Shown one piece after another: positions 20,816 through 35,317 of a DNA stretch of 44,242 nucleotides. The notes beneath the pieces are model-generated. The model worked only from the letters and a program-made list of their open reading frames with translations, had not been told where the DNA came from and searched no databases. Every line of letters begins with the position of its first letter. Within the stretch, counting starts at the first letter, position 1. The stretch comes from Candidatus Woesearchaeota archaeon (GTDB lineage: Archaea > Nanobdellota > Nanobdellia > Woesearchaeales > UBA12501): contig JACOVM010000077.1 of the NCBI GenBank assembly GCA_016177345.1, forward strand, positions 1 through 44,242, written 5' to 3'. The position numbers and the translations under genes are program-made.

Positions 20816-20869
20816 AGTAATCACATCCCTTAATGTTATAACAAGTATATTAATCCCATAAATATCATA

Positions 20870-20987: not shown

Positions 20988-21026
20988 AATCAACCTAATT
21001 AACCAACATAATAAAATAAGGACAAT

Positions 21027-21199: not shown

Positions 21200-21296
21200 A
21201 TCATCATTGTAAAATGGTATAATTGACCTGACATTTGTAGATAAAACTGTTTTGTAGGGGCATACACTGCCATTGATCGTTTCTTCCACAGAAAAC

Positions 21297-21305
21297 TTTA
21301 TAAAA
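21297..21305 (+). promoter_or_regulatory. TATA box (TTTATAAAA) for the mini-pilin array
   Basis: Consensus TATA followed by GAGGTG (21328-21333) 6 nt before ATG 21340. Confidence 0.45.
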
Positions 21306-21339
21306 GAAAACGCTTGTACTGGGAAAAGAGGTGTTGTAT

Positions 21340-21606: not shown

Positions 21607-21618
21607 CGAGGCATTGGG

Positions 21619-21897
21619 ATGAGGCGAATGAGGCAGCAAAAAGCCCAGGGCCAGTGGACGCATATTGTTGCTGCAGTCCTTGTCTTAGTTGTTATCGTTG
21701 TTGTTGTTCTTATTTTTACTGGAGTGCTAGGCAAGGCTCGAAAAGACATCAGCCAATGCAAAGGCCTCCTCCAATTTGGAGCGGAGGCACAAGGGAGCTG
21801 CGTTAGGGAGGGAAGCTGTCAGGGAACGATAGTATCTACCTTTGGAGAAAGCTGCCAGAAAGGAGAGGAATGTTGTATTCCCACCTCTAATGGATAA
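21619..21897 (+). CDS. Mini-pilin 2: class III signal + six-Cys head (92 aa)
   Basis: MRRMRQQKAQG/QWTHIVAAVLVLVVIVVVVLIFTG, then C-x13-C-x5-C-x11-C-x5-CC. Confidence 0.8.
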   Translation: MRRMRQQKAQGQWTHIVAAVLVLVVIVVVVLIFTGVLGKARKDISQCKGLLQFGAEAQGSCVREGSCQGTIVSTFGESCQKGEECCIPTSNG

Positions 21898-21942
21898 ATA
21901 TGATAAATGATAAACATAATAAATCATAGGGAGGATAAAATT

Positions 21943-22227
21943 ATGATCAAACAAACAAAAGCCCAGGGACTAAGTATGTCGACCATCGTTCTTGCTGTCC
22001 TCGCCCTTGTTGTTCTTGTTATCCTTATTCTCATCTTTACTGGAAAGCTCGGTAGGACTGGGCAGGGTATTGATACGACACGAGACCAGTACACTGGACA
22101 AAATTGTGAGATTCCTGGAACCCCGCGAACGTGCAGGATAGGGGGCTTGGATGAATGTAGAAGGCAAGGCGGAACGGTGTACAGCGGCGCGACCTGCCCG
22201 GCAGGAGGGGTGTGTTGCTCGGTATGA
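21943..22227 (+). CDS. Mini-pilin 3: class III signal + six-Cys head (94 aa)
   Basis: GGGAGG at 21929-21934, then ATG 21943. MIKQTKAQG/LSMSTIVLAVLALVVLVILILIFTG, then C-x8-C-x7-C-x12-C-x5-CC. Confidence 0.8.
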   Translation: MIKQTKAQGLSMSTIVLAVLALVVLVILILIFTGKLGRTGQGIDTTRDQYTGQNCEIPGTPRTCRIGGLDECRRQGGTVYSGATCPAGGVCCSV

Positions 22228-22529
22228 TCCCCCTGATATCTCAACGGAAGGCACGTAAAAAAGGCCAGGGATTAAGCCTCAACACGGTTGTTCTTGCAGC
22301 CTTAGCGCTTATTGTGCTCATCATTATCGTTCTCATTCTCACCGGAAAAATTAGGAAGACCAGTGAGGGTATTGATGATACGGGAAAGATTGCTGACGCG
22401 AGTAAGTGTGAGATTCCTGGGGCGCGAACCTGTGTGCTCTATAATGAGTGTGAGACAACAGAATTGTATAGCATGCCCGGATGCACTGCTGGAACGTATT
22501 GCTGTGAAGTTCCGAGGATTCAACGATGA
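22224..22529 (+). CDS. Mini-pilin 4: class III signal + six-Cys head (101 aa)
   Basis: ATGA overlap with mini-pilin 3. MIPLISQRKARKKGQG/LSLNTVVLAALALIVLIIIVLILTG, then C-x7-C-x5-C-x10-C-x5-CC. Confidence 0.75.
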   Translation: MIPLISQRKARKKGQGLSLNTVVLAALALIVLIIIVLILTGKIRKTSEGIDDTGKIADASKCEIPGARTCVLYNECETTELYSMPGCTAGTYCCEVPRIQR

Positions 22530-23596
22530 AAGGAAGGAAGGGAACGCTGACCTGGACCCAAATTGCAGCCGCAGCCTTAATGGTTCTTGTTGTCATCGCA
22601 GTAGCATACCTTCTGGGAACTTCTATTAAAACAGGGAAAAAAAGCATTGAGGGATGTGTCAATAATGGGGGAACATGCGTTGCCGAGGGAGAGGCATGCC
22701 CAGAAGACTACCACCAGACTGACGCGCTTCAATGCTTTGGAAAGAGAACCTGCTGCATGCCAAGCCTCCTTACCAGAGGGAGAGGCCAGGCTGGAAAAAA
22801 CCAGACAGCGCCACTCCAGCCAACTCCTGTTTCTGAACAAGAAAAGAAGATTGCGGATGCGGAGGCTCTTGTAGATGCAAGGCGCATTGATGATGCAGCC
22901 AATGTTCTCGAATCAGTGCGAGATGACGATACAGCATCAAGAGAAATACGGGTAAAAGCAGCATTTAAGCTTGCCATGCTTCCATTTCGGATTATAGAAA
23001 AAGATGTTATTTATATCGATGAACCAACAAAAATTGTAGATACCGTTCAGGTGTTCTGCGAGAATTTCGAAACAGTAAAAAGCCGCTATGATGATGTTGT
23101 GGATGAAGAACCACTCATTTCTGCCGAGCCAATACCGTTTGCATGGCAGCTCAGCTGCATTTTAGGGCGATTTAGAAGCCAGCCGCCATTACTGCCGGTG
23201 GAAATAGAGCTCCGCAACGCGTTTGCTGAAAAGAATTATTGCGGCATGTCATTAACCACTGATATAAGTTCAGAGTGCGAGGCAGCGTTTCCAGGCTGGT
23301 TTATCTCGGAAGATCATACCGCATGGTTTGAACGCTACCGAGAGGAAAAGGAGACTAATCTGCCAGGTATGGATTATACCATGCAATGTTATTATGGCCT
23401 AGCGCTTTTGAGAACTTACTCTGATCAGTTTTATCGACTTGTTGAGCTTCGCTATGATAAGGTTATCCCCTGCGATATGCTCACCATGATAGAAGAGCGA
23501 GGCCCTGACTTGCCTGAAAAGTATTGCAAGGAGCTCTTAGCGCTTGTTCAATCATCATTCCCGATTGATATGGAAGAATGCACTCCAAACGCCTAA
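22526..23596 (+). CDS. Mini-pilin 5 with the same six-Cys head plus ~260-aa C-terminal extension (356 aa)
   Basis: ATGA overlap with mini-pilin 4. MKGRKG/TLTWTQIAAAALMVLVVIAVAYLLG. The head GCVNNGGTCVAEGEAC..C..CC is near-identical in pattern to mini-pilin 1 (ACVNQGGTCVES). Confidence 0.8.
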   Translation: MKGRKGTLTWTQIAAAALMVLVVIAVAYLLGTSIKTGKKSIEGCVNNGGTCVAEGEACPEDYHQTDALQCFGKRTCCMPSLLTRGRGQAGKNQTAPLQPTPVSEQEKKIADAEALVDARRIDDAANVLESVRDDDTASREIRVKAAFKLAMLPFRIIEKDVIYIDEPTKIVDTVQVFCENFETVKSRYDDVVDEEPLISAEPIPFAWQLSCILGRFRSQPPLLPVEIELRNAFAEKNYCGMSLTTDISSECEAAFPGWFISEDHTAWFERYREEKETNLPGMDYTMQCYYGLALLRTYSDQFYRLVELRYDKVIPCDMLTMIEERGPDLPEKYCKELLALVQSSFPIDMEECTPNA

Positions 23597-23629
23597 TTAC
23601 CCGTCTTTAACTCTTTTTATTAATCCTTT

Positions 23630-24385
23630 TTATCCAGTACCGCAATAAATAACCTCACCATTTTTTACGACAACAAGAAATCCCTGTTTCGCTCGTGCCC
23701 ACCGCTCTCTTGTCAGCTTCGTCATGGAGACAACAAAGCATGGGCCATCCTCCGTATACCCCTGTTTCTTATATTGCTGTAATGTCCAATACCTGTTAAA
23801 TCCATGGATGTCATGATAAAAGAAGAGAAAGCTGCCATCAGAAAACAAGAGGTTCATCTTTCCATATCTTTTCTTGGCTGTTTCGAAATCCTTGTTTATC
23901 ACTCTCAATGTTTTTGCAAGCCATGCCATCGATTCCCTTGTCCATGCCTTAATCTTCTTTTTCTCAATCCAATAAAGTAGATGGCAGAAGATACGCTCTG
24001 AGTCAGTTTGGCCATAGGGGGTGAATCGCCCTATGGGAAGCTGAGAGGTATGATCGAGATGGCCATTATGGGCGAAGACATACTCTTTTCCAAAGAGGCT
24101 GCGATGGAATGGATGAGTATTCTCACAAACAATGCCACCAATACTTGCTCCGCGAAGGTGGGCGATAACCATGTTGGTTCTTGCTGTTGAATGGCTCTTT
24201 AGAAACCGCTCTGCTGTTGAACAGCCTGCCTTTCGTGGTGATTTTGTTACAACAGCTTTCTTTCCCCAGTACCAGGCAACACCCCACCCATCGGGGTTAT
24301 ACCTTCCTCTCTTAAAAAATAATCGCCAGAGGCGCTCGTCCAAAGGCAAAGGCTTGCTCGTTGAAATGCCAAGCATGTCACACAT
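23630..24385 (-). CDS. Class II (Ntn) glutamine amidotransferase-like protein, YafJ/EgtC family
   Basis: MCDMLGIS (Cys2 nucleophile), DGWGVAWY, AHLRGASIGGIVCENTHPF, FAHNGHL and GQTDSERIFCHLL all match the YafJ pattern. Confidence 0.85.
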   Translation of the reverse strand: MCDMLGISTSKPLPLDERLWRLFFKRGRYNPDGWGVAWYWGKKAVVTKSPRKAGCSTAERFLKSHSTARTNMVIAHLRGASIGGIVCENTHPFHRSLFGKEYVFAHNGHLDHTSQLPIGRFTPYGQTDSERIFCHLLYWIEKKKIKAWTRESMAWLAKTLRVINKDFETAKKRYGKMNLLFSDGSFLFFYHDIHGFNRYWTLQQYKKQGYTEDGPCFVVSMTKLTRERWARAKQGFLVVVKNGEVIYCGTG

Positions 24386-24504
24386 ACTAATAATTATGAG
24401 AAAGCCTCTTTATAATAGTTTGGGGTTATTAGTTAGGAGTTTGGAGAACGCACTGAACAAACATCATAACTCTTAACTCCTTGCCTAAACTTGCAGGGAC
24501 AATA

Positions 24505-24512
24505 TTTATAAA
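24505..24512 (+). promoter_or_regulatory. TATA box (TTTATAAA) for the second pilin-signal gene run
   Basis: Exact TTTATAAA lies 30 nt before ATG 24535, predicting a leaderless mRNA. Confidence 0.5.
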
Positions 24513-24534
24513 GCGTATTCTGCTCAACACTAAT

Positions 24535-24669
24535 ATGGCATGGCAAGCCAGACCTTGGCAAGAAAAAGGCGAGATGATCGACCGAACGATCGGCATTATT
24601 TTGGCAGTAGCGCTGATTATTACGTTTATGGCCGTGCTCATCTACGTTCTTAAGAGGGCCATAGGATGA
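24535..24669 (+). CDS. Minimal pilin-signal peptide (44 aa; essentially signal + helix only)
   Basis: MAWQARPWQEKG/EMIDRTIGIILAVALIITFMAVLIYVLKRAIG. The maximal ORF starts at TTG 24481, but the TATA spacing favours ATG 24535. ATGA overlap with the next gene. Confidence 0.55.
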   Translation: MAWQARPWQEKGEMIDRTIGIILAVALIITFMAVLIYVLKRAIG

Positions 24670-25442
24670 CAAGAATAATGATAAGAACAGCAGGAAAAGG
24701 GGAAGTAGAGCACCATTTGCTATATATCATCCTTGGCCTTGTTGGCTTTTTTCTTATCCTCACCTTTATTATGAGCACTTTATTTAGAATTCAAGAGCCT
24801 GCAGGAGATGAAACCTGCCGAGATGCACTCATTTTTACAGATTATGTTGCAACAAAGCTCAAGGCAGAAAGCCTGAAGCCATTTCCAAAAGCCTGCGAAT
24901 ATGAACAGGTTGAGCTGAAATCAAAAAATCCTATTGATGTTGAAAAAGATATGGTCAAGCTGATGGAGCGGTGCTGGTACAAGATGGGATCTGGAAAGAT
25001 TGAACCATTTGATAGATCCAAGGTATTTTTTGAAACCAACTGCTTTATCTGCTTTATAGCAAGCGTACCAAACATGGAAGGAAGTATTGATGACGATGCG
25101 TTTACCGCACATCTCCAAAGTATTTACCGGACTGAGGGGCAGCGGTATTTTGAATATTTTGGCCTTGACAAAAATCCAGGGGTTGCCTCATTTGGAATCC
25201 CCCTTGGCAAGGTGAACGATGTCAATGTGATTACAGAGCCGATCACAAACGAAAAGCAGTACGCGATTGTCTATATTGATGTTGCAACGCCAGAAGCACA
25301 GGCAAAGCCAGCAGAGCTTATTTCAGATAAAAAGCCAGTTCACGTGAGCAAGCTGTACATTGCTGAATTGAATGACGCTAAAGAGTGTTACGATCCATCA
25401 TGGTTTGTAACCGTTGGGGACACAAGAGCCAGAGGGGATTAG
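24666..25442 (+). CDS. Pilin-signal protein (258 aa)
   Basis: MTRIMIRTAGKG/EVEHHLLYIILGLVGFFLILTFIMS. No recognised domain. Confidence 0.7.
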   Translation: MTRIMIRTAGKGEVEHHLLYIILGLVGFFLILTFIMSTLFRIQEPAGDETCRDALIFTDYVATKLKAESLKPFPKACEYEQVELKSKNPIDVEKDMVKLMERCWYKMGSGKIEPFDRSKVFFETNCFICFIASVPNMEGSIDDDAFTAHLQSIYRTEGQRYFEYFGLDKNPGVASFGIPLGKVNDVNVITEPITNEKQYAIVYIDVATPEAQAKPAELISDKKPVHVSKLYIAELNDAKECYDPSWFVTVGDTRARGD

Positions 25443-25446
25443 GACT

Positions 25447-25662
25447 ATGATAAAAATAAAGAGGAAGCCATCAATACATTGGTACTTATCTAGGCGTTTA
25501 TGGAATTCAAGAAAGGCGCAAGATACTTCGCTCCCCATGAAGTACATTGTCGGATTAATCCTTCTCGCCATTGCCCTTATACTCTTCATCATGCTCTATG
25601 TTGGTTGGATTCCCTCACCTGATGATATCGTCAATAAGCTTGTTGGGATTATACGGAGATGA
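25447..25662 (+). CDS. Small pilin-signal protein (71 aa)
   Basis: MIKIKRKPSIHWYLSRRLWNSRKA/QDTSLPMKYIVGLILLAIALILFIML. ATG 25447 avoids the 29-nt overlap implied by the maximal ORF (25414). Confidence 0.55.
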   Translation: MIKIKRKPSIHWYLSRRLWNSRKAQDTSLPMKYIVGLILLAIALILFIMLYVGWIPSPDDIVNKLVGIIRR

Positions 25663-25683
25663 CAAAGATAATATGAGCGGAAT

Positions 25684-26409
25684 ATGGGCGGGATAGAAAC
25701 TATGGCAACGAATAAACAACCATCACGACTTCCATCTTCTTCATCAAGCCTCTTACAGGCCAAAAAGGGATCATTTGGGGCTATTGCAGGCCTGGTCATC
25801 TCAATTCTCGTCCTTATTGTCATGATTATCCTGTACGGCAGCCAATTTTTTGCTCCAATCGCAAAGCACACTGGCTTTTTGAAAGAGGAATTTGAGCATA
25901 AAGGCCCCATCATTACTGATTTTCCAGTTGAGGCGTACCATGACCTCATTCAGGAAACAGTGGGGGAGGACTTTGTTTTTGTTGTTGGATTCGATCTCGA
26001 GGTAGATGTTGGAAACTGGTTTAGCAATGAACAGTACACCGCAATAAAAAAGCATACCAGCTTGAGAAGCCTAGACACTGAAAATGAACAGCTTCAAATT
26101 ACCTCAATCAAGACAGACAAAGGGCTTACAAAGGTCCAGGCAATTGAAGAGCTTACCGGGATTGTGGTGCTATTCAAGAAGCAAGGCATGGCGAATTCAG
26201 TTATCGTGGGAATTGATGATGATCCAGAAATCGGAAAAGACCTCATCTTTTCAGTTCCAGAAACAACCCCTGAAGGAACAATAAAAATGGACATTAATGG
26301 CAATCCATTGTCAACACCGGTCGGAAAGCTCACCGTGAAGGCAATAGAAGGAACCGCAATCAACTACACTATTGTTCCATTTGTGGAAACCGGAGGAATC
26401 GTCACATGA
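25684..26409 (+). CDS. Pilin-signal protein (241 aa)
   Basis: ..SSSSSLLQAKKG/SFGAIAGLVISILVLIVMIILYG. ATGA overlap with the next gene. Confidence 0.7.
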   Translation: MGGIETMATNKQPSRLPSSSSSLLQAKKGSFGAIAGLVISILVLIVMIILYGSQFFAPIAKHTGFLKEEFEHKGPIITDFPVEAYHDLIQETVGEDFVFVVGFDLEVDVGNWFSNEQYTAIKKHTSLRSLDTENEQLQITSIKTDKGLTKVQAIEELTGIVVLFKKQGMANSVIVGIDDDPEIGKDLIFSVPETTPEGTIKMDINGNPLSTPVGKLTVKAIEGTAINYTIVPFVETGGIVT

Positions 26410-26807
26410 AGTACCATGGAGGGCTTGGCCATATAAAGAATAGTGCCTTAAAGAATAATGTCTTAAAGAATAGTGTCTTTGGAAAAGCAAGAAAAGGGGA
26501 GCTGGGCTTTAGCCAGATCGCCAGCCTTGCCATTGTTCTTTTGGTCATTATCGCTATTGCAGTTGCTATTATCCCCCAGATCTCCAAAAAAGGAAAGACC
26601 ATAGAAAACATCACTATCCTCACAACAGGAGACTTGGACGGGGATGGTGTTCCAAATGGGCTTGATCGGTGCTGCCCGGCGCAGTGTAAAGCAGACAGGT
26701 CTGAATTAGAAACACTTGCACCATCGGATAAACGATACGGCTGTGCCCCATGGCAGCAGTCAGTTGCGTGTGAGGATACGTTGACGAATTGTGGCACCGC
26801 TGCATAA
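26406..26807 (+). CDS. Pilin-signal protein with pentapeptide-repeat pre-sequence and TSP3-like Ca-binding motif (133 aa)
   Basis: KNSAL-KNNVL-KNSVF, then GKARKG/ELGFSQIASLAIVLLVIIAIAVAI, then GDLDGDGVPNGLDRCCPAQC. Confidence 0.7.
   Translation: MKYHGGLGHIKNSALKNNVLKNSVFGKARKGELGFSQIASLAIVLLVIIAIAVAIIPQISKKGKTIENITILTTGDLDGDGVPNGLDRCCPAQCKADRSELETLAPSDKRYGCAPWQQSVACEDTLTNCGTAA
26433..26477 (+). repeat. In-frame 15-bp tandem repeat x3 (ttaaagaata[g/a]tg[t/c]c)
   Basis: Units at 26433-26447, 26448-26462 and 26463-26477, encoding K-N-[SN]-[AV]-[LF] x3 ahead of the signal peptide. Confidence 0.9.
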
Positions 26808-26809
26808 TT

Positions 26810-26831
26810 ATGGTTTATCAATGGTTTATCA
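26810..26831. repeat. Exact tandem duplication atggtttatca x2
   Basis: Copies at 26810-26820 and 26821-26831, immediately after the stop codon of 26406-26807. Confidence 0.95.
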
Positions 26832-26847
26832 CTTCAGTAGTTCCTTT

Positions 26848-26869
26848 TGAATTGTAACTGAATTGTAAA
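26848..26869. repeat. Tandem duplication tgaattgtaa[c/a] x2
   Basis: Copies at 26848-26858 and 26859-26869, just upstream of SD GAGGGTGA and ATG 26883. Confidence 0.9.
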
Positions 26870-26882
26870 AGAGGGTGATGAA

Positions 26883-28088
26883 ATGCTTCGACAGTTATTC
26901 CAGTCAAAGAAGGCAACACTTGACTTTGTCCTCGGTCTTATTCTTATGATTGCACTCGTAACAGCAACAGCCATGATAGGGTTCAAGATTTTTAAGTTTG
27001 GCACTGGAGGGGCAGGATTAAAATCACTGAACAAGTTTGCAGCAAGTATCGACGAGTTTAGCACAGCAGGGCAAGGGTCAAGCTCCTCTGTTGTCCTTGA
27101 AATTGAAGAAGGGGATGTTGTTTTCGGATTTTCAAAATATGATGCTCCTTTGATGAAGATGTACAATCCAACAGTGGCAGGTATTGGCGACAGCATGACG
27201 GTGCTCCATAAATTTATCCGAAAGCCCACAGAATGTGAGAGCGGGCTTGCCTGCATCTGCTATTGTGAGGGGCATTCAACCCATGACGAGCTTGAAGCAA
27301 CCTGCTCTGCTATGGCTTGTAAGAGTATAGACGGAGTAAACTTTCAACGAATAACTGACCAGGCACTCTTGGTTCCATCTGACGACTACCTTTGGACAGG
27401 CACGAGCATGGATAGCCATCCCTTGCTGAATGGGTTTGCATTGTATAACCGAGAGACCTTGTTTCCAAAAGTTGCCTTTGATCCTGCTCCAAATGCTCTT
27501 GTCAACATGAGAAAGCCGCTTGGGGAGCTTACCCATATTCGTATCGAAAAGGGAAAAGATGACCTTGTTGCAATCTGTGTTTACCAGGAAGGGCGACAAT
27601 GCCTTAGTGAGGAAATGGAGAAAAGTTACAACGTGGCAAAAAAGACCCAAGATGCGATAAAGGCAATCGAGCAAGATATTACTGACAATAATTACGGCCA
27701 GGCTGTTCAACGCCTGAATGTTCTTCTCAGTGATAGAGAACTGTTAGAACAATTAGACAGTTATACTGCTGAAAAGCTGTATTACCTCAAAGGTATTGCA
27801 CATCTTGGAACCAAGGAATATGGCCTTGCAGAAGAATCGTTTGAGAAAAGCATTGACGTGGCAGAAATAGGAATGTTTACTGCTGATGCCAAAGCAAAAT
27901 TAGATGACGCAGTACGATTGAAGGAATGCAAGGAACTCACCTGCGAACAGCTTTCTACAAGCGAATGCGAAACAAACACGTGCGGCATTCCTTGTATTGT
28001 TATGGAAAAAACAGTGCATGAAGGAGAAGAGCCTCTAACAACAACACAAAAATACTGTACAACCCCTTCACTGGATATACTTACATAA
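26883..28088 (+). CDS. Pilin-signal protein with TPR-like segment and Cys-rich tail (401 aa)
   Basis: MLRQLFQSKKA/TLDFVLGLILMIALVTATAMIG. TPR-like YGQAVQRLNVLL...YYLKGIAHLGTKEYGLAEESFEKSI at ~27687-27870. Confidence 0.75.
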   Translation: MLRQLFQSKKATLDFVLGLILMIALVTATAMIGFKIFKFGTGGAGLKSLNKFAASIDEFSTAGQGSSSSVVLEIEEGDVVFGFSKYDAPLMKMYNPTVAGIGDSMTVLHKFIRKPTECESGLACICYCEGHSTHDELEATCSAMACKSIDGVNFQRITDQALLVPSDDYLWTGTSMDSHPLLNGFALYNRETLFPKVAFDPAPNALVNMRKPLGELTHIRIEKGKDDLVAICVYQEGRQCLSEEMEKSYNVAKKTQDAIKAIEQDITDNNYGQAVQRLNVLLSDRELLEQLDSYTAEKLYYLKGIAHLGTKEYGLAEESFEKSIDVAEIGMFTADAKAKLDDAVRLKECKELTCEQLSTSECETNTCGIPCIVMEKTVHEGEEPLTTTQKYCTTPSLDILT

Positions 28089-28091
28089 CAA

Positions 28092-28118
28092 CTACATAAT
28101 TACTACTACATAATTACT
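28092..28118. repeat. Tandem duplication ctacataattact x2 (1-nt spacer)
   Basis: Copies at 28092-28104 and 28106-28118, flanked by acataac[a/t]actacat copies at 28083-28097 and 28122-28136. Confidence 0.9.
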
Positions 28119-28163
28119 GTAACATAACTACTACATGGCCAGAAAGGCAAACAGGCGGCGATC

Positions 28164-28649
28164 ATGAAAGCATGGGCAAGAAAAGGAAATGTACTGTTCA
28201 CTATCGCAGAACTTGTTATCGCAGCAGTAGTTGTTTTTCTATTTATTAACGGAGCCTTAAAGGTGGCAACAAGCACGGCATCACAACGCAATTTTCTGGC
28301 AAATGATATTGCCACTACCATGAGCACACTCCATTCTGTGCCAGGTGATGCAACTTATATATATAAACAGGAGAGCCTTCAGAAGTATAAGTTCACAATC
28401 CAAACAGGCCTGGTAAAGGTAAGCGAGCCAGCAGCTAGTGTCATGGGAGAAGCGGTACAAACTATCGCAGTATACCCTGGTGCAGAAAAGGAAATGAGGT
28501 CTACCGTTATTGCATTTGCGCCAAGCCTTCAGCTGGTAAAAACAGGAAAGCTTGTTCATATCCAGAGCTCTCCTGAATATGAGATCCTGGAAGAACAAGC
28601 GCCAGATGTTTCCACAAGCCGTGCTACCTGTAGTGGAGACTGTGGCTAA
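28164..28649 (+). CDS. Pilin-signal protein (161 aa)
   Basis: MKAWARKG/NVLFTIAELVIAAVVVFLFI. The FTIAELVIA core resembles the bacterial FTLIEL pilin motif. Confidence 0.75.
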   Translation: MKAWARKGNVLFTIAELVIAAVVVFLFINGALKVATSTASQRNFLANDIATTMSTLHSVPGDATYIYKQESLQKYKFTIQTGLVKVSEPAASVMGEAVQTIAVYPGAEKEMRSTVIAFAPSLQLVKTGKLVHIQSSPEYEILEEQAPDVSTSRATCSGDCG

Positions 28650-28710
28650 TGGCAGAATCTCATCTGTTCATAAACCAATGAGATTTGCTATAACAAAGAA
28701 TAGGTGAATA

Positions 28711-28733
28711 GTGAAATAAAATGGTGAAATAAA
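28711..28733. repeat. Direct repeat gtgaaataaa x2 (3-nt spacer), preceded by gtgaata
   Basis: Copies at 28711-28720 and 28724-28733, with a related gtgaata at 28704-28710. Confidence 0.9.
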
Positions 28734-28777
28734 GAACATTAGAGTACCTGAAGCATAATCAGTGGACTTGCAAATCT

Positions 28778-29614
28778 ATGGCCTCAATCGTAACAAATAA
28801 GAGGGACAATCGAAGAGCCCTGCTGCTCATCATTCTTCTCCTTACAAGCATAGCGCTCTTCAGCAGTGTTGGCCATGCCCTTCTTATTGACCAGGATCAG
28901 TTTACAAACACAGCACTTCAAGAAAAGATAAGCCTGCTTGAGCTTCAAAGCAGAAAAACCATCGTTGTTGCGATCACCAAAACCTCAACTCAGCCATTTG
29001 ACGATGGAGTCTCGCTTCTCCAAGAGCATCAAGCAGACCTTGTTGTTTTATACCGATATCAAGAAAATAAGATTGCAGTCATTCAGCCTATTGATGCATG
29101 GCTTTCAGACGCTGAGATAAAAGAGATTATAGATAAGCACGCTGCAGAAAAGGAGCAAGCGATTACACCGGAAGAAAAAAATAGTTACATTATCGCTATT
29201 CTCGATGAAATTACTCCCTTGCTTATTGCTGCAAAAGATACCAGAAGCTATTGTGCCGCTGTTAAAGACGGCTATTGCGATCCAAAATGTGAGGGAATAG
29301 ACATGGACTGCTTGTGTGGTGATGCAATCTGCCAGTATCACGAAGTTAAGGCAACGTGCAGTGCAGATTGTGGAGGGGCTAGAGAAACCTTTTGCTCAAT
29401 TCTCCGAGATGGCATTTGCGATGAGAATTGCAAAAGGGATATTGATTGCGGGTTTGGAAAGCTTATGGCAGTAACTGAACAAGTTCAACAAAAGACGAAG
29501 CTCCAATACAGTACAATCCTTGGCATCCTCTATGCTGTTTTTTTAGCAGCCTCTGTCGTGTTCGGCTTCCTCCTCTATCAGGAACGCCAGCAAAAAAAGG
29601 AAAGAAAAAGCTAA
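28778..29614 (+). CDS. Type I membrane protein with Cys-rich D-G-x-C-D-x-x-C modules (278 aa)
   Basis: Sec-type signal RRALLLIILLLTSIALFSSVGHA. C-terminal TM ILGILYAVFLAASVVFGFLLY plus a KKERKS tail. DGYCDPKCEGIDMDC and DGICDENCKRDIDCG are also present. Confidence 0.75.
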   Translation: MASIVTNKRDNRRALLLIILLLTSIALFSSVGHALLIDQDQFTNTALQEKISLLELQSRKTIVVAITKTSTQPFDDGVSLLQEHQADLVVLYRYQENKIAVIQPIDAWLSDAEIKEIIDKHAAEKEQAITPEEKNSYIIAILDEITPLLIAAKDTRSYCAAVKDGYCDPKCEGIDMDCLCGDAICQYHEVKATCSADCGGARETFCSILRDGICDENCKRDIDCGFGKLMAVTEQVQQKTKLQYSTILGILYAVFLAASVVFGFLLYQERQQKKERKS

Positions 29615-29626
29615 AGAAAAGCTAAA
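29604..29626. repeat. Near-tandem gaaaa(a)gctaaa x2
   Basis: Copies at 29604-29615 and 29616-29626. The first copy contains the TAA stop of 28778-29614. Confidence 0.85.
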
Positions 29627-29662
29627 AAATGAAGAAAGGCATCGCGGAAGACGATTGAGATC

Positions 29663-30205
29663 ATGAAGGCCATAAGAAAACGAATGATAAAAAACTGGAA
29701 CCAACAGGCACAAGCAAGCGCTGATAGTGCAGGAAAAACGATAACGTACCTTTGTGCAGTAATCATTCTCGGGCTTGCTGCAGTGGGCTTCTCTGTTGTT
29801 GCAGCACACTTGCAAAGCGATACCCAATTCATCAAGCCCGGCGTCGAAAAGCTTATTGGAAAACACCGATTCCTCCACACTAGCGCCTGTTTTTCATACG
29901 AAGACCAGCTCACGGGAAGGGCAATGCCAAGAGTGATTGACCTTGAAAAAATGACCCAAGAGCGCTTAGAAGAATGTTACATGGTAGAGCAGAAGTCTCA
30001 AAACCAGTGCTTTCAGCTCCAGCTCTTGAGAAGGGAACCAAAAGAGCCTGAGGAGCCGGAAAAGCCACTTCGCGAGATCCAGACAGCAAACTGGGTTGAC
30101 TGTTTTGTCACGAAACAGCGAGAAGAGACAGACATCGAATACGTTCTCATCAAAGAAGGAGATCAACTCAGCCAAGGAATAATGAAGATAAGAATGATGA
30201 GATGA
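29663..30205 (+). CDS. N-terminally anchored protein, non-canonical pilin-like signal (180 aa)
   Basis: ..QASADSAGKTITYLCAVIILGLAAVGFSVVAAH. A hydrophobic helix is present but the [KR]-[GA] site is atypical. Confidence 0.6.
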   Translation: MKAIRKRMIKNWNQQAQASADSAGKTITYLCAVIILGLAAVGFSVVAAHLQSDTQFIKPGVEKLIGKHRFLHTSACFSYEDQLTGRAMPRVIDLEKMTQERLEECYMVEQKSQNQCFQLQLLRREPKEPEEPEKPLREIQTANWVDCFVTKQREETDIEYVLIKEGDQLSQGIMKIRMMR

Positions 30206-30226
30206 AGAGGGCGGGAGCCTAACGAG

Positions 30227-30880
30227 ATGTGCATCATGAAATTATTCCACAATACAAAAGGAGTTGACATGCAGGACTGGTTTGGCATCGTATTCTCGGT
30301 AGTTATCGGCGCATTTGTTTTTTTTGGCATGGCAGGCCTTCTCATGGTTACTGCGCAGCACGAGAAGACTGTCCTTAAAGAGATCACCTCTGTAGTTGAT
30401 GATTCCTTTTTCTTAATGACTTATGTAAGAACTCCTCTCTCTTCACAAACAATAGAGGGAGAAGAGGAAAACAAAGAGCTATCCTCTGTTCAAACGTATC
30501 TGGCTGAGGAAGGGCTTACGATGGCCCAGCTTATTGACATTGTTGGAAACAAAAAAGAAGCAAAAGCGCTTTTTCATGAAACAAGGGCAGGAATACCTGA
30601 AGAGATGCGAACATTGTCAGATGAGGAAGTAGAAGGCTTGCTTGAGCAGCTTCTTGATGCTTATAATAAAGACCTCTTCACTGCACGATATGGAGTACAA
30701 GGATGGAGCCTCATCATAGACTATCCGGAACAGTACAGAAATGATATTGATATTATCCATGATACAGGTGGGCTTGGTGGGGGAAGAGCAACAGAGATAA
30801 CAATTCCGACAATCGACGGAAAAAATGTGATAACCATACGCCTCGTGAGGAATATTCATGCAGTTGTTGTCAGGCCCTAA
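30227..30880 (+). CDS. Pilin-signal protein (217 aa)
   Basis: MCIMKLFHNTKG/VDMQDWFGIVFSVVIGAFVFFGMAGLL. Confidence 0.7.
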   Translation: MCIMKLFHNTKGVDMQDWFGIVFSVVIGAFVFFGMAGLLMVTAQHEKTVLKEITSVVDDSFFLMTYVRTPLSSQTIEGEEENKELSSVQTYLAEEGLTMAQLIDIVGNKKEAKALFHETRAGIPEEMRTLSDEEVEGLLEQLLDAYNKDLFTARYGVQGWSLIIDYPEQYRNDIDIIHDTGGLGGGRATEITIPTIDGKNVITIRLVRNIHAVVVRP

Positions 30881-30967: not shown

Positions 30968-33900
30968 ATGATAGAAAAAAAAAGAACAAAAAGGATAATG
31001 AAGCCCTGGAAGAAAAAAGGGGCGTATGAACTCTACTTTGGAATTATCGGTGTTGTTATAGCCCTCTTTGTCCTCCTTTATTTTTCGCTTGCTGAAGAAA
31101 AGGGAAGTAGGTTTATAGGAGAGCAGCAGCTGCAAGTGCTTGTTGCCGATGCAAAAGTACAGTCATCCCTCCTTTATCTTGATCAAGCCTCTGGATATGC
31201 AGTCCAACAAGCTATTTATACCCTTGCTGCAAAAGGAGGCTTTAGTAAAGAAACTACTTGTGGAACGTATTATGGGGCAGCATCTTGGCAGACTGTTGTT
31301 CAAGAGGAAGCACAAGGTCGCCAGGTGAGCCAACATGTTCAAAGTTGCAATCCTCTTGTTCAGCTCCACCAATCCTTTGAGGAGGAGCTCAATGAGCAGC
31401 TTCAGCGATACCTTCAGCATGACCAACAGCTGCGAGAATTTCTTTTTCACCTTCAGATTAAAGAAGGGGGTGCACAAGAGGATTGGACTAATAAGGTAAG
31501 AGAGGATGAAGATACTTCTGGTATCCCCCATATGCCTAGCCGGTATACCACAGTTATTGGGACTACAGATACCCCATTAAAAGTAGATATCCTTAAGGAA
31601 CTGCAAGAGGACGAAGGCCTTAATTCGGCTTCATCATCATTTGGGGTATATCCATCTACCGAGGGAGAAACTGGATTTTTTTCAAGAAAAGGAATGCCTA
31701 TTGATAGAATCGTCGTGCACTACACGGTATCATCAACAACAGAAGCGACTGTTCAAACCTTTTTAGAGGAAGAGGTTAGCATCCATTACATTCTGGGTAC
31801 GGAAGAAGAAGGCTTCAAGGTAACTCAGATGGTGCCAGAAGAATTTGGGGCCTATCATGCGGGGGGATGTTCTGACGCAACGTGTAAGCCTGGTGTTTAT
31901 GAAAACATGAATATACGAGCTATTGGAATTGAAATTGTCAATTGGGGATTTCAGAGATGTGGCACTGCAAAGCAAGGCCAATGTCCTGAAGGATGCCAAG
32001 GGCCATACGAGCGGCTCTGTGTAAATGATAACAAAGAAGCGTGTGGCACAATATTATATTGTTGGCAGCCATACCCAGAAGGCCAATATCTTGCGCTGGT
32101 TCAACTTATTGCAGACATTGTTGAGCGGCACAAAACCCTTCAGACTGAGCAAGGATTGACAACAAGAGCTAATATTATCGGGCACAATGAGATCAAATAC
32201 CAAAAATCAGATCCGGGGCCAAGGGAAGTTATGGATCTCGACAGGCTTACTAATGATGTAAATACTGAGCTGATGAGTAGAAAATCCCTTGCTTCAACGA
32301 TGACCCCGGTTCTTGGGGCAGCGATTGCTCCGGCGGACACAATGTCTGAAGAGCAAAATAGTGCAGATGCTAGCGAACAAGAGGGTGAAAAACAAGGAGT
32401 ATATCAGATTCAGCCAACCTTTGCCACAACACTAGCTTACTCTTTTACCGACTACTCCCTATTAACAGATGCACTCTATGGAGAGAACGGTGTTGTCAAC
32501 AAGACCTTAGCCTGTGAAAAACAAGGCAGGGTTGTTGAGGAATGCCTCGTCGAGGCAACAGAGTCAATAAACAATGAAGTGCTCAGCAAGCAAGGGCTTC
32601 TATTGTACAATGGAGACTGTGATGTTCAGTCGAATGTAAAAACAGATTTCTTAGAGTACTATTCTCTTTGCCAACAATCAGGGCAGGACCAATGTATATG
32701 CACGATATCCTTAGCAAAAGATCCTAAACAGCATGGGCTAGTTGAGTTTAGTGTCGGTGGAGACGAACAAACAGAAGCCATGCCTTTTTATGATCATGAA
32801 TCAGCTGTTTTTCGCCCTGATGAGCATCTTGAGACAATATCGTTAGGTACCGTACAGGATCTTGATGAGGAACCAACATTCAACGAAGAAGAAATGCTTA
32901 CTATCCATATGGCTGAAAACATGATCAACAAAAAGCTGCCATTCTACAAAAAAGATGAAAATCTGTATTTTGTGGAGGATGGGAAAACAGGCGCAGTCCC
33001 TCAATGCAGGGAACAAAAAAGGATGTTCCTGTTTTGTGCTGTACAGCAAGACATACAACGAGTAATCTATGACCCAATTGAACAAGAGATTGCAAACAAG
33101 AATGTAGAATACAAATTCGCTATTGCATTTCCAGACATTACCCCGCCAAAGCCGGTAAAAAATAGCATTGCCTATGACAAGCCAGGAGCAGAAGATTCTG
33201 TCATCCTCACTTGGGATAAAAGTGAAGAGAAAGATATTGAGGCTTTTTCAGTATTTGTTGCACCAGAACAAGGGGATCTAGCTGGCCTCTTTGATCAAGA
33301 AACAAGCAGGATAAAAGAAGAGCTTCAACCACAAGAATTCTTCATAAAGGATGTTGTTCTTCTCGAAGGAGGCATTACCAGAGAGGACCTTCAAACTTGC
33401 ACCTGGAATTTGGAAGAAAAAATGTGTGAAACAACATTGCTCAATGGTGAAAAGATTGTTCTCGATGAAGGTATTCTGTACGAGACAACAGATGATGCAC
33501 CATACTACCTTCTTGTTTTGCATGCCATTCCTAACGGCATACCCCACCAATTTGCAATTACTGCAAGAGACATTTTCAAAAATGAAATAAATAATCTTGA
33601 TGATGGCCAGAAAATAAATAAAAAGAGTGGAACGTCAAAAGATGACTTGCCGCCGGAGATGATAGGCCCGGCAAGGACTATGCTCATCGAAGAAACAGAA
33701 GGAGATAAAGTAACAAAAAAGATACGCGTTGAATGGGATCTTCCAACACATAATATGGATGGCGGTAGTGTGGATGATGTTTCCTCATTCATTATAAAAT
33801 ATAGTAGAGAACGGGGGGCAACGAAAAAAACTGCTCAAAAAGAAGAATCGTGCACTGGGCAATTATGCTCCACGTTCTTACCCTATCTTGGCCAAGGGCT

Positions 33901-33982
33901 TATCCAAGTTGGCGCCCTTGATGACCAAAAAAATATATTCCAGGACTGGGAGACGTATACCCCAGTAGCAACAGTTTCTTAG
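30968..33982 (+). CDS. Pilin-signal protein carrying an Amidase_2 (N-acetylmuramoyl-L-alanine amidase / PGRP-type) domain + beta-rich C-terminal modules (1004 aa)
   Basis: WKKKG/AYELYFGIIGVVIALFVLLYF. Amidase core at ~31690-32220: IDRIVVHYT, GAYHAGG, IGIEIVNWG, IIGHNEI, KSDPGP (AmpD-type H/H/D zinc triad pattern), with Cys-rich insertions. Confidence 0.8.
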   Translation: MIEKKRTKRIMKPWKKKGAYELYFGIIGVVIALFVLLYFSLAEEKGSRFIGEQQLQVLVADAKVQSSLLYLDQASGYAVQQAIYTLAAKGGFSKETTCGTYYGAASWQTVVQEEAQGRQVSQHVQSCNPLVQLHQSFEEELNEQLQRYLQHDQQLREFLFHLQIKEGGAQEDWTNKVREDEDTSGIPHMPSRYTTVIGTTDTPLKVDILKELQEDEGLNSASSSFGVYPSTEGETGFFSRKGMPIDRIVVHYTVSSTTEATVQTFLEEEVSIHYILGTEEEGFKVTQMVPEEFGAYHAGGCSDATCKPGVYENMNIRAIGIEIVNWGFQRCGTAKQGQCPEGCQGPYERLCVNDNKEACGTILYCWQPYPEGQYLALVQLIADIVERHKTLQTEQGLTTRANIIGHNEIKYQKSDPGPREVMDLDRLTNDVNTELMSRKSLASTMTPVLGAAIAPADTMSEEQNSADASEQEGEKQGVYQIQPTFATTLAYSFTDYSLLTDALYGENGVVNKTLACEKQGRVVEECLVEATESINNEVLSKQGLLLYNGDCDVQSNVKTDFLEYYSLCQQSGQDQCICTISLAKDPKQHGLVEFSVGGDEQTEAMPFYDHESAVFRPDEHLETISLGTVQDLDEEPTFNEEEMLTIHMAENMINKKLPFYKKDENLYFVEDGKTGAVPQCREQKRMFLFCAVQQDIQRVIYDPIEQEIANKNVEYKFAIAFPDITPPKPVKNSIAYDKPGAEDSVILTWDKSEEKDIEAFSVFVAPEQGDLAGLFDQETSRIKEELQPQEFFIKDVVLLEGGITREDLQTCTWNLEEKMCETTLLNGEKIVLDEGILYETTDDAPYYLLVLHAIPNGIPHQFAITARDIFKNEINNLDDGQKINKKSGTSKDDLPPEMIGPARTMLIEETEGDKVTKKIRVEWDLPTHNMDGGSVDDVSSFIIKYSRERGATKKTAQKEESCTGQLCSTFLPYLGQGLIQVGALDDQKNIFQDWETYTPVATVS

Positions 33983-34099: not shown

Positions 34100-35317
34100 A
34101 TGATTAAAATGCCTTACGAGCAGATCCTTGAAAAGATCCGGTCTTCTGCTGCTATTTCTGAAGACGAGCTTCAACAGCGAATCCAGGAAAAAATGGACCA
34201 GCTTGCAGGCCTCATCTCTAAAGAGGGTGCAGCCCACATTATTGCAAATGAGCTTGGGATAAAATTGCTTGAACAGCAAACTGGAAGGCTAAAAATAAAA
34301 AACACGCTGCCTGGCATGCGGAATGTGGAAGTGGTTGCTAAGGTTCAAGAGCGGTATGAAGTGAGAGAATTTCAGAAAGATGACCGAGTTGGAAAGGTAG
34401 GGTCTTGCCTTATTGAAGATGATACCCAGAAAATAAGGCTTGTTTTCTGGGGCAACATGACAGACCAGCTTCTTCGCCTCGAAAAAGGGGATATTATTAA
34501 AGTCCAAGGGGGGTATGTCAAGGACAATAATGGAAGGCGAGAAATTCATCTTAATGAAAAGTCGACCATTACAGTAAATCCTACAGGAGAGGACGTTGAT
34601 ATCAAAGAACAAATGATCACTAGAAAATCAGTTTCATCACTAAAAGAACAAGATGATAATGTAGAGCTCTTTGGAACCATTGTCCAATTGTATGACATTC
34701 ACTTCTTTGAGCTGTGCCCACGCTGCCAAAAAAGAGTAAAGCAGAGAATAGTAAACCATCACCAGAATGAGCAAGGAGAAACTATATCTGAGGCTATCTT
34801 TGCCTGTGATTATCATGGGGATATTACCCCGCAGTATTCTTGCGTGATGAACTGCTACCTTGATGATGGGACGGGAAATGTTCGCTTAGTGTTTTTTCAG
34901 CAGCAAATCCAGCAGCTCCTCCAAAAAACAGGGGCTGAGCTGATGGAATACCGGCAAGAACAAAAGAAATTTGAAGAGGCGAAACAAGACCTTCTCGGGA
35001 GGATTATTAAGGCATCTGGCCGGGCCAACAAGAATATCATGTTCGATCGAATGGAGTTTATTGTTGCGCATGCCGATAGAAATCCAGATCCAAAAAAAGA
35101 AATCGAGCGGCTCCAGCACGAACGAAAACAGCTCTCTGTTGGAGAAAAGACGCTTGAAGAACTCCAACAAGACAATAGCGGGCTGCTCTCCAGAAATATA
35201 GTCTTGACCTCCAATGGGCGAACACAAGTGAATACAGAGAATGCCCCCCTTAACGCTATTGAAGAGCACCTTACCAGAGACAATGATGAAAATAGCGATT
35301 CTAAAGAAGAAATTTAG
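34100..35317 (+). CDS. Replication protein A-like ssDNA-binding protein (OB folds + zinc ribbon)
   Basis: N-terminal ISKEGAAHIIANELGI helix domain, an OB-like VVAKVQERYEVREFQKDDRVGKVGSCLIEDDTQKIRLVFW, a CPRC..x..CDYH zinc ribbon inside a second OB, and a charged tail. Confidence 0.7.
   Translation: MIKMPYEQILEKIRSSAAISEDELQQRIQEKMDQLAGLISKEGAAHIIANELGIKLLEQQTGRLKIKNTLPGMRNVEVVAKVQERYEVREFQKDDRVGKVGSCLIEDDTQKIRLVFWGNMTDQLLRLEKGDIIKVQGGYVKDNNGRREIHLNEKSTITVNPTGEDVDIKEQMITRKSVSSLKEQDDNVELFGTIVQLYDIHFFELCPRCQKRVKQRIVNHHQNEQGETISEAIFACDYHGDITPQYSCVMNCYLDDGTGNVRLVFFQQQIQQLLQKTGAELMEYRQEQKKFEEAKQDLLGRIIKASGRANKNIMFDRMEFIVAHADRNPDPKKEIERLQHERKQLSVGEKTLEELQQDNSGLLSRNIVLTSNGRTQVNTENAPLNAIEEHLTRDNDENSDSKEEI

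Follow-up and report, generated by a model that had tools for sequence, protein, structure and literature searches.

Introduction

Large extracellular proteins with a murein transglycosylase domain, specific to Woesearchaeota and Pacearchaeota, have been described in DPANN archaea (Castelle et al. 2021; PMC8204110), and Vigneron et al. (2022; PMC9723730) have made these SLT proteins the basis of a predatory or 'vampiristic' reading. Modular peptidoglycan hydrolases (PGHs) have also been reported from about 5% of archaeal genomes, where they are 'particularly prominent' in Nanoarchaeota, and two haloarchaeal M23 enzymes kill a bacterium, Halalkalibacterium (Strock et al. 2025, PLoS Biol; PMC12352652). 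Here we describe a gene at 30968-33982 (+ strand) of a 44,242-nucleotide stretch of Candidatus Woesearchaeota DNA (assembly GCA_016177345.1, contig JACOVM010000077.1, positions 1 to 44,242; the whole stretch is called the window below). Its 1004-residue product carries an Amidase_2 domain as 'cargo' between a pilin-like N-terminal module (N-module) and a C-terminal module (C-module) rich in fibronectin-III (FN3) folds. On balance, the protein is probably a surface-displayed murein amidase that acts where the cell touches a bacterial wall, and its conserved scaffold is probably linked in function to an array of pilin-like genes.

The published DPANN SLT proteins (fam00969 of Castelle et al. 2021, AR20 of Castelle et al. 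2015, and those of Vigneron et al. 2022) share with this protein the lineage, the large extracellular character and the proposed purpose. They differ in that the window protein has no SLT domain and carries Amidase_2 only, but three orthologues in the same genomic slot (P0002, P0141 and P0182) do carry SLT and very probably belong to the published family. The archaeal PGHs of Strock et al. likewise place a murein hydrolase domain in an archaeal protein and are read as anti-bacterial; the examples tested are soluble, secreted haloarchaeal M23 enzymes, unlike the window scaffold. Their survey asked for a catalytic domain accompanied by a known wall-binding domain and, among signals, counted those of the Sec and Tat kinds only (PMC12352652), and it would miss proteins of the window type because these lack a known wall-binding domain and have an N-terminus resembling a class III (pilin-type) signal. 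In a term search, pilins, pili and class III signals were unmentioned in PMC8204110, PMC9723730 and PMC12352652; the first two deal with the SLT domain only and mention neither a conserved array, nor a slot adjoining the gene for replication protein A (RPA), nor interchangeable cargo. A full-text literature search returned no paper combining Woesearchaeota, pili and lytic murein transglycosylase. The carrier architecture, the RPA-adjacent slot after a class-III-like array and the swappable cargo thus appear undescribed in the literature. As an enzyme, the domain is an unexceptional Amidase_2 member, and archaeal murein hydrolases aimed at bacteria are an idea that has already been published. 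An NCBI record that is 100% identical from M11 onwards is entitled 'N-acetylmuramoyl-L-alanine amidase [Candidatus Woesearchaeota archaeon]', so that the enzyme annotation also existed; the novelty claimed in an earlier note on this DNA was to that extent overstated (PMC8204110, PMC9723730, PMC12352652).

The described enzymes closest to the domain are AmiD of E. coli and AmpDh2 and AmpDh3 of P. aeruginosa, which have the same catalytic domain and fold, the same His-His-Asp zinc site and the same catalytic Glu and Lys. AmiD cleaves the bond between N-acetylmuramic acid (MurNAc) and L-Ala, and the corresponding anhMurNAc-L-Ala bond, in zinc-dependent catalysis, and enzymes of this group act on intact murein and on anhydromuropeptides alike (PMC6403190). 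They are bacterial lipoproteins of ~260 amino acids (aa) with a C-terminal PG_binding_1 domain, engaged in turnover of the cell's own wall, and nearly all bacterial relatives of the domain combine Amidase_2 with PG_binding_1 (PF01471) in about 260-340 aa. The window protein, in contrast, is archaeal and 1004 aa long, holds its cargo internally, and has neither PF01471 nor a lipobox.

Several known systems resemble the carrier. Bacterial modular type IV pilins, such as PilB and PilC of S. sanguinis, join a small pilin-type module by a linker to a functional module; they are encoded in pilin clusters, are predicted to lie at the filament tip, and include forms with peptidase modules (Raynaud et al. 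2021). They have the bacterial IPR012902 motif, their polymerisation was shown and their cargo is C-terminal, whereas the window protein has a KKG archaeal-style motif, a pilin fold that is not demonstrated, and its cargo between two conserved modules. In the Sulfolobales bindosome, non-pilin proteins that bear a class III signal and a hydrophobic helix use an assembly system resembling that of type IV filaments and encoded elsewhere in the genome; those are solute-binding proteins encoded beside ABC transporters, whereas here a hydrolase carrier lies in a long pilin-like array. Polymorphic effector carriers and phage virion murein hydrolases likewise combine a conserved carrier with exchanged hydrolases of several bond specificities. 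Polymorphic toxin systems have a cognate immunity gene downstream, where the scaffold gene instead has RPA, and phage tail-tip and host-specificity proteins have FN3 arrays like those of the C-module, a homology limited to the generic FN3 fold.

Results

An AmiD/AmpDh2-type amidase domain

The scaffold gene and the parts of its product are as follows (residues numbered from the first ATG; Zn ligands and catalytic residues assigned by alignment).

30968..33982, + strand: scaffold gene, 1004 aa, with leader, hydrophobic helix, N-module, linker, Amidase_2 cargo, linker and FN3-rich C-module
30968..31021, + strand: basic leader ending KKKG, aa 1-18 (or 11-18), with a putative class III cleavage site after G18
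31022..31090, + strand: hydrophobic helix of ~23 residues (AYELYFGIIGVVIALFVLLYFSL), the sole predicted transmembrane (TM) segment, helix 19/20-41 in both structural models
31022..31462, + strand: N-module, aa 19-165, with hydrophobic helix, amphipathic helix (IGExQ...YxDxA...GG), beta-hairpin and further helix
31691..32221, + strand: Amidase_2 cargo, Pfam PF01510, aa 242-418
31718..31720, + strand: H251 (in IVVHYT), first Zn ligand
31931..31933, + strand: E322 (in IGIEIVN), catalytic glutamate
31949..32065, + strand: six-Cys insertion, aa 328-366 (FQRCGTAKQGQCPEGCQGPYERLCVNDNKEACGTILYCW), with motif IGIEIVNWG before it and WQPYP after it
32183..32185, + strand: H406 (in IIGHNEI), second Zn ligand
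32204..32212, + strand: K413-S-D415 (in KSDPGP), Lys catalytic and Asp the third Zn ligand
32408..33979, + strand: C-module, aa 481-1004, with a helical/beta subdomain, then tandem fibronectin-III-like beta-sandwiches

The earlier note had placed a peptidoglycan amidase domain at 31690-32220. A Pfam hidden Markov model (HMM) search bore this out, with PF01510 at 31691-32221 as the sole Pfam family of the window protein (E=3e-21, 76.5 bits vs a cutoff of 26), matching profile positions 2-131 of 131. Against NCBIfam the whole protein gave only a sub-threshold AmpD match (17 bits vs a cutoff of 143). The motifs on which the note had relied are all present, namely IVVHYT (248-253), AYHAGG (295-300), IGIEIVNWG (319-327), IIGHNEI (403-409) and KSDPGP (413-418), as is its N-terminal motif KKG/AYELYFGIIGVVIALF at aa 16-34 (here and below a slash marks the putative cleavage site). 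In a phmmer search of PDB sequences these motifs aligned with IVLHYT, IGIEIVN, IIGHSDI and KVDPGP of P. aeruginosa AmpDh2, at positions which we take, from structural work on AmpD, AmiD and T7 lysozyme, to be those of the zinc-binding His, His and Asp and of the Glu and Lys that act in catalysis. Conservation of the zinc ligands, on which the note had let its claim depend, was found in an alignment of 80 sequences, in which H251, E322, K413 and D415 were invariant and H406 was kept in at least 90%. The domain is a bona fide Amidase_2 and, judged by its residues, catalytically competent.

The label 'PGRP-type', which the note had also given it, proved wrong at the subfamily level. The third zinc ligand is Asp in AmpD and AmiD and Cys in T7 lysozyme and PGRP. 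A profile built from nine related domains matched the solved structures of AmpDh2 (3.5e-51), AmiD (1e-39), AmpDh3 (3.5e-33) and AmpD (3.7e-26), with amidases of the phage/Bacillus XlyA type reaching only about 1e-7 and no PGRP or T7 lysozyme chain among its PDB matches at E<=1e-3. With Asp as its third ligand and AmiD and AmpDh2 as its nearest families, the domain is placed in the AmiD/AmpDh2 branch rather than with PGRP and T7 lysozyme. The predicted structure agreed: a first AlphaFold2 (AF2) model, made from 80 sequences with alignment depth over the amidase only, so that the N- and C-modules were left unmodelled, gave the domain a predicted local distance difference test score (pLDDT) of 85-96 over aa 240-445. 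When this model was compared with the PDB by Foldseek, the top four hits were AmpDh2, AmiD and AmpDh3 structures (E=5.7e-8 to 7.9e-7), and nothing else fell below E 0.1.

The domain had further been described as interrupted by Cys-rich insertions. This holds for one true insertion with six cysteines, at aa 328-366 (about 30-39 residues), which is absent from AmpDh2 and AmiD and whose position is common to P0002 and to the Chloroflexota relatives described below; Cys301 and Cys306, on the other hand, lie in a loop of normal length. The scaffold protein has 22 Cys in total, and this even number, together with the FN3 stalk, fits an extracellular protein. Low-complexity acidic linkers with low pLDDT flank the cargo on both sides (aa 166-241 and 445-480).

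A modular scaffold and its conserved genomic position

A word-index search gave only 4 relatives for the full-length protein and 5 for the domain, as if the window protein were an orphan; this was overturned by an exhaustive phmmer search over 1.84 billion cluster representatives, which yielded 743 relatives at E<=1e-3, of which 186 reached E<=1e-10. The relatives match three regions separately: the N-module (aa ~15-160), the amidase (~235-440) and the C-module (~450-1000). When the top 150 were split by module-specific phmmer searches, 52 representatives had the N- and C-modules without an amidase, and about 40 bore the amidase, ~32 of these with class-III-like N-termini. The amidase typically occupies aa 190-400 of amidase-bearing relatives ~950-1350 aa long. 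By these matches, the window protein is a three-part scaffold in which the cargo stands between a pilin-like N-module and an FN3-rich C-module.

The gene occupies a conserved slot. In eight loci (the window and L001, L047, L048, L049, L051, L052 and L053) a + strand array of 11-17 genes ends with the orthologue, and in each locus an HMM of the N-module matched exactly one gene, always the scaffold orthologue. RPA lies directly 3' of the scaffold gene in 7/8 loci, the L048 contig ending at the scaffold gene itself, and in the seven loci that reach past it RPA is usually followed by YdjM and then RadA. The elements that flank the scaffold gene in the window are listed here.

18539..30880, + strand: array of 17 genes 5' of the scaffold gene, 16/17 with a [KR][GAS] motif and then ~20 hydrophobic residues
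21340-22529 (starts 21340, 21619, 21907 and 22224), + strand: four tandem paralogues of 88-106 aa within the array, with KA/QG or KG/QG
34100..35317, + strand: RPA homologue with OB fold, Rep_fac-A_C and DUF2240, an archaeal marker and the right-hand synteny anchor

The link to a surface locus that the earlier note had suggested is strengthened by this arrangement, in which the orthologue ends a collinear class-III-like array in all eight loci. Likewise, its archaeal context is confirmed by RPA, DUF2240, RadA (37127-38161; Rad51 E=6.5e-81, with HHH_5) and a TrmB regulator on the same contig, which also encodes a LigT phosphoesterase, and NCBI assigns the record to Candidatus Woesearchaeota. 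The host is a Woesearchaeota (DPANN) archaeon.

Exchanged cargo, nearly all of it murein hydrolases

The cargo differs between the eight loci, as the following lines show (Pfam domains).

Window: window protein, 1004 aa; Amidase_2
L048: P0233, 955 aa; Amidase_2
L047: P0141, 1347 aa; Amidase_2 and SLT
L052: P0182, 1004 aa; Amidase_2 and SLT
L001: P0002, 1222 aa; Amidase_2, M23 and SLT
L051: P0181, 648 aa; M23 only
L049/L050: P0238, 618 aa; none detected
L053: P0128, 848 aa; none detected

Five cargo states thus occur in eight syntenic loci, and at least 12 murein-directed Pfam families are found on the same N/C scaffold. For a wider census, 39 representatives that bear the amidase and 61 that lack it but have an N-terminus of the same design (n=100) were scanned with Pfam. 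The commonest families were Amidase_2 (40, a share inflated by the amidase contained in the query), SLT (29), Peptidase_M23 (13) and fn3 (7), followed by Glucosaminidase (4), VanY, NlpC/P60 and 3D (3 each) and Peptidase_M15 (2), with single occurrences of Amidase_3, YkuD, GH108, Lysozyme_like, Polysacc_deac_1, Lipase_GDSL_2, NAGPA and Peptidase_C39_2. The 61 amidase-less proteins, which had been recruited by their N- and C-modules only, gave 43 murein-hydrolase domain matches. The cargo is therefore almost exclusively made up of murein hydrolases, swapped between loci.

The targets of D-Ala-D-Ala carboxypeptidases, of L,D-transpeptidases and of muramidases and lytic transglycosylases (the last two acting between MurNAc and N-acetylglucosamine, GlcNAc) are present in bacterial murein and absent from pseudomurein. 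Because the swappable cargo addresses the chemistry of murein and not of pseudomurein, the substrate of the amidase is most readily seen as bacterial peptidoglycan. The outward, anti-murein role proposed in the earlier note gains support in the same way from the SLT, M23, glucosaminidase, VanY, NlpC/P60 and YkuD domains of the slot orthologues, and this repertoire is our strongest argument for a murein substrate, which we infer, as we do the extracellular location and the biological purpose. No immunity-like gene lies directly 3' of the scaffold gene, RPA being there in 7/7 loci that extend past it; none would be expected, because the producer has no murein to protect.

One further locus shows carrier and enzyme apart. 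In L003 (Woesearchaeota metagenome-assembled genome (MAG), CAYPAI010000007.1) a gene at 3502-5475 encodes a 657-aa protein matched by the N-module HMM (MQKRGQ/VTIYIILG) but without amidase, and the next gene, which overlaps it at 5472-12890, encodes a 2472-aa protein with a Sec-like N-terminus and an amidase of the same subfamily (IGIEIVNWGF), in which a motif like bacterial SH3 (GDWLRIKDPGNNAWWVHEDYV) is repeated three times. At this locus the carrier lies beside the amidase and is not fused to it.

The N-terminus of the scaffold

Two in-frame ATG codons, at 30968 and 30998, could start the gene, neither of them preceded by a convincing Shine-Dalgarno sequence. NCBI and the Logan assembly start at 30998 (M11, 994 aa), which gives a leader of 8 residues, typical of the family, but both starts give a short basic leader. 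From M11 the sequence reads MKPWKKKG/AYELYFGIIGVVIALFVLLYFSL and conforms to the general class III rule, for which we used a short basic leader with K/R at -2 (and -3), G/A/S at -1 and then ~20 uncharged hydrophobic residues: it has K/R at -2 and -3, G at -1 and no other TM segment. In its strict form (at least 20 uncharged residues) the rule was passed by 89/145 family members and by only 8/117 bacterial AmiD-type controls. Among the 89, the -3 residue was K/R in 79/89 and the -1 residue was G in 46, A in 29 and S in 14. Leaders in the family are mostly 5-10 aa long and the commonest +1 residue is Gln, which is typical of the Methanococcus pilins processed by EppA. These results point to a class-III-type signal as the likely nature of the scaffold N-terminus. 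The claim of the earlier note on this point is plausible but not established: the general rule, the motif statistics and the genomic context speak for it, while the stricter pattern and the curated models considered in the Discussion do not, and cleavage itself is still putative.

The pilin-like gene array

Counting the scaffold gene, 17/18 consecutive + strand genes from 18539 to 33982 fit the class-III-like motif without other TM segments, and similar N-termini are found in 11 consecutive genes of L001 and in 16/16 of L048. The array genes are collinear homologues between loci, as seen for w18539/L048_622 (E=9e-30), w19719/L048_1608 (9e-18), w21340/L048_2748 (6e-21), w28778/L053_5235 (3e-21) and w29663/L053_6114 (3e-16), and at 25-43% identity between loci they are more diverged than the adjoining RPA (37-50%). 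When N-termini of the scaffold (aa 1-100) and of nine array proteins were scanned with Pfam and NCBIfam at E<=5, no class III, pilin or archaellin family came up for the scaffold, and two array proteins gave sub-threshold matches only, to Flp1_like (E=0.008) and to the prepilin model PRK10332 (E=0.039).

The four tandem paralogues have a hydrophobic helix followed by a short Cys-rich C-terminal knot (e.g. CEIPG...C...C...CPAGGVCC), and homologues were found in L048 (E=6e-21) and L052 (E=2e-11). They look like candidates for the major subunit of the array.

In the window a lone minus-strand gene for a class-II glutamine amidotransferase (23630-24385, -; GATase_4, E=1.4e-46) breaks the array. 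Enzyme-like domains are also found in some array proteins: L053 has one of 635 aa with a Lipase_GDSL_2 domain (3382-5289), and TPM_phosphatase-domain proteins of L048 (3848-5263) and L052 (2674-4005) are homologous to the window gene at 24666-25442 (E about 1e-11).

Predicted structure of the conserved modules

A second AF2 model was made from a 113-row family alignment. In it the N-module is predicted to consist of helix 20-41, helix 52-88, a two-strand hairpin at 104-126 and helix 133-167 (pLDDT 84-96 for aa 50-160), the hairpin being closed by invariant C98...C127-x-P129, whose two Cys form a conserved disulfide pair. The C-module (aa 480-1004) was modelled with a pLDDT mostly >90. Its Foldseek matches in the PDB were tandem fibronectin-III arrays (E about 1e-8; insulin-receptor ectodomain, PTPRD FN4-6, titin) and, in a viral library, FN3-rich phage tail-tip, host-specificity and fibre proteins (E=4e-7 to 1e-3). 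As modelled, the C-module is a generic extracellular stalk or adhesion architecture. Such generic FN3 matches dominated the Foldseek search with the full-length second model and masked the N-module.

Origin of the amidase domain

In a tblastn search of species-representative genomes, the nearest relatives outside the family were in Anaerolineae/Chloroflexota, at 29-33% identity (E about 1e-20 to 1e-15). In a neighbour-joining (NJ) tree of 110 domains, drawn without support values, most scaffold-borne archaeal domains, including that of the window, fell in one deep cluster, with P0002 and P0272 near the Chloroflexota group. The Chloroflexota affinity of the domain is accordingly tentative. A recent phage origin was rejected: only 26/50,697 phage records matched, at ~30% identity and E=3e-7 or weaker, and the archaeal domains cluster separately. 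With the tree only indicative, the domain is judged to have a bacterial AmiD-like ancestry, with acquisition long ago and later diversification within the lineage.

Some of these bacterial proteins (P0003 and P0004; loci L004-L017, Anaerolineae/Chloroflexota) join a polysaccharide deacetylase to an Amidase_2 interrupted by a Cys-rich insertion (CxxxxxxCxxxCxxC). This occupies the same loop as the archaeal HAGGCxxxxC motif, and these proteins are possible donors or a sister group.

Discussion

As we picture it, the 530-bp feature would encode a zinc-dependent N-acetylmuramoyl-L-alanine amidase of the AmiD/AmpDh2 type, the cargo of a surface protein. Array proteins and scaffold would insert into the membrane via their N-terminal helices, the leader would be removed, probably by a prepilin-type peptidase encoded elsewhere, and the proteins could then assemble into a pilus-like or bindosome-like surface structure on which the scaffold presents the hydrolase outside the archaeal cell. 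On contact, the amidase would cut the MurNAc-L-Ala bond of bacterial murein, perhaps to break through or hold on to the wall of a bacterium that is its partner or prey, or to set stem peptides free, and different lineages would load the same scaffold with different murein hydrolases. Leader cleavage and filament assembly are steps that we infer from the N-termini and their context. The fullest form of this proposal, a dedicated organelle related to type IV filaments, built from an array of 11-17 genes, with a polymorphic murein-hydrolase carrier as its terminal subunit and serving as a contact device against bacterial walls, is put forward tentatively, as a possibility about which we have more doubt than conviction.

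Several observations weigh against display of the amidase on such a structure. The N-terminus KG/AYEL, with Y at +2 and E at +3, fails the FlaFind-type pattern, which Szabo and colleagues are said to have given in 2007 as [KRDE][GA][ALIFQMVED][ILMVTAS]x3; among array neighbours several also fail and a few pass. No curated class III, pilin or archaellin model scored above threshold on the scaffold or the nine array proteins in the Pfam and NCBIfam scans. In a type IV pilin a long alpha-helix at the N-terminus packs against a head formed by an antiparallel beta-sheet, whereas the N-module is modelled as helix-hairpin-helix and not with this canonical alpha/beta head, and its profile gave only noise against solved structures and matched no solved pilin. 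Pfam detected no known murein-binding domain (PG_binding_1, LysM or SH3) in the window protein, the Amidase_2 count of the census is biased as noted, and the window and related sequences all come from MAGs. Finally, no gene for a prepilin peptidase, assembly ATPase or platform protein was found in the 44-kb window, in L001 or in L047-L053. This last objection loses weight because the class-III-signal substrate-binding proteins of the Sulfolobales bindosome are encoded apart from their assembly system (bioRxiv 10.64898/2026.04.22.720090). The same study records type IV filament (TFF) system 1 and subsystem 4A in DPANN, and archaellum/TFF genes have been reported as core in Woesearchaeota (PMC9723730).

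The absence of nearby pilus assembly genes and of any match to a curated pilin model would be accommodated by a scavenging ectoenzyme, for which the single N-terminal helix of TM length, with no other TM segment, would be a signal-anchor, cleaved or uncleaved, that ties it to the archaeal membrane. Such a protein, like the other hydrolases of its relatives, would digest free murein or dead sacculi, with neither filament nor living partner, and a metabolically poor DPANN cell would import the stem peptides and amino sugars released; enzymes of the AmiD/AmpDh type do act in muropeptide turnover (PMC6403190) and DPANN have been described as scavengers (PMC9723730). However, scavenging leaves unexplained why the gene holds a fixed last position in a collinear array of 11-17 genes in eight loci, and why the cargo varies across every class of murein bond, as is typical for contact weapons and for phage lysins; nor does any muropeptide or oligopeptide transporter adjoin the locus in the window. 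We regard this explanation as unlikely, although it is the chief alternative and deserves to be taken seriously. A freely secreted bacteriolysin, released for example by proteolysis of the linkers and killing competitors at a distance, would make use of the long, low-complexity acidic linkers of low pLDDT around the cargo, and has precedent in the archaeal PGHs that kill and in the prominence of PGHs in Nanoarchaeota (PMC12352652). Yet the N-terminus is not of the Sec/Tat kind (short h-region, AXA site), the 23-residue helix would be retained after maturation, the cargo has a conserved module on either side, and a diffusible toxin would be of little use to an ultra-small, host-dependent cell, all of which makes this reading improbable.

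A target other than murein fares worse. The domain might act on the pseudomurein of a methanogen host, on a glycan-peptide of the cell's own envelope, or as a non-catalytic binding module as in some PGRPs, and a partnership with methanogens has indeed been proposed for Woesearchaeota (a proposal taken up in PMC9723730). But the chemistries addressed by the SLT, GH108, lysozyme-like, glucosaminidase, VanY, M15 and YkuD cargo are absent from pseudomurein, almost no PGHs occur in pseudomurein producers (PMC12352652), and a role in binding only is unlikely because all catalytic and zinc residues are intact; we consider the whole group of explanations very improbable. The notion that a bacterial contig was mis-binned into an archaeal MAG could appeal to the Chloroflexota as nearest relatives of the domain outside the family and to one orthologous contig labelled 'Alphaproteobacteria bacterium' at NCBI (L047; DASPMU010000034.1, GCA_035626895.1). 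That label is almost certainly wrong, because the contig shows the archaeal RPA/RadA synteny. Among 20 clusters of family representatives, 4 bear a taxon name, this one included. In the window, archaeal RPA (Rep_fac-A_C, DUF2240), RadA and TrmB lie within 3-8 kb on the same contig, and mis-binning, which has next to no credibility left, was ruled out by the same gene order in eight independent assemblies.

That some DPANN archaea might live on or prey on bacteria instead of other archaea has so far been a hint given by the mere presence of SLT-domain proteins. The analysis gives this hint the form of a defined system, with a conserved operon, a carrier at a fixed address 5' of RPA and a pilin-style N-terminus suggesting display. 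Its cargo repertoire (amidase, endopeptidase, carboxypeptidase, muramidase, glucosaminidase and lytic transglycosylase) makes sense only against bacterial murein, and the organelle, if real, would be the molecular basis of a cross-domain episymbiosis or predation, archaeon on bacterium, with cargo swapped in an arms race. The analysis also exposes a blind spot in surveys that require known wall-binding domains and Sec/Tat signals. It provides an amidase domain for enzymology, an N-module HMM as a marker for the locus, and a pool of disulfide-rich murein hydrolases that would have evolved without need for self-immunity. Should the filament model fail, the protein would be one more annotated DPANN murein hydrolase.

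Other genes of the window

Directly 5' of the array lie four genes for very large predicted surface proteins, all on the + strand, at 578-5692, 5724-8060, 9280-15159 and 15209-18451 (1704, 778, 1959 and 1080 aa, in that order). Pfam found in them only MopE-type metal-binding motifs, Big_13 and a sub-threshold Glucodextran_B match. The 778-aa protein has a class-III-like N-terminus (MIRSKA/QLTGFILLAVVLLVL), and in the 1080-aa protein a Cys-rich module is repeated three times and is accompanied by a C-terminal TM segment and a long tail rich in K/Q/E. L048 likewise encodes a protein of 2216 aa 5' of the array.

Wedged among these giant surface-protein genes is an overlapping + strand pair (8155-8754 and 8751-9152) encoding an HTH-nucleotidyltransferase (NTP_transf_2, E=8e-9) and a protein with a weak HEPN match (E=0.0065); the pair (8155-9152) looks like an MNT-HEPN toxin-antitoxin. 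No tRNAs or Rfam families were found in the window. Near its right-hand end, on the - strand, an opine (octopine/nopaline) dehydrogenase-like gene (43134-44210; Octopine_DH, E=2.5e-35) overlaps a gene for a 472-aa protein without family match (41732-43150), a metabolic content that is unusual for a DPANN contig.

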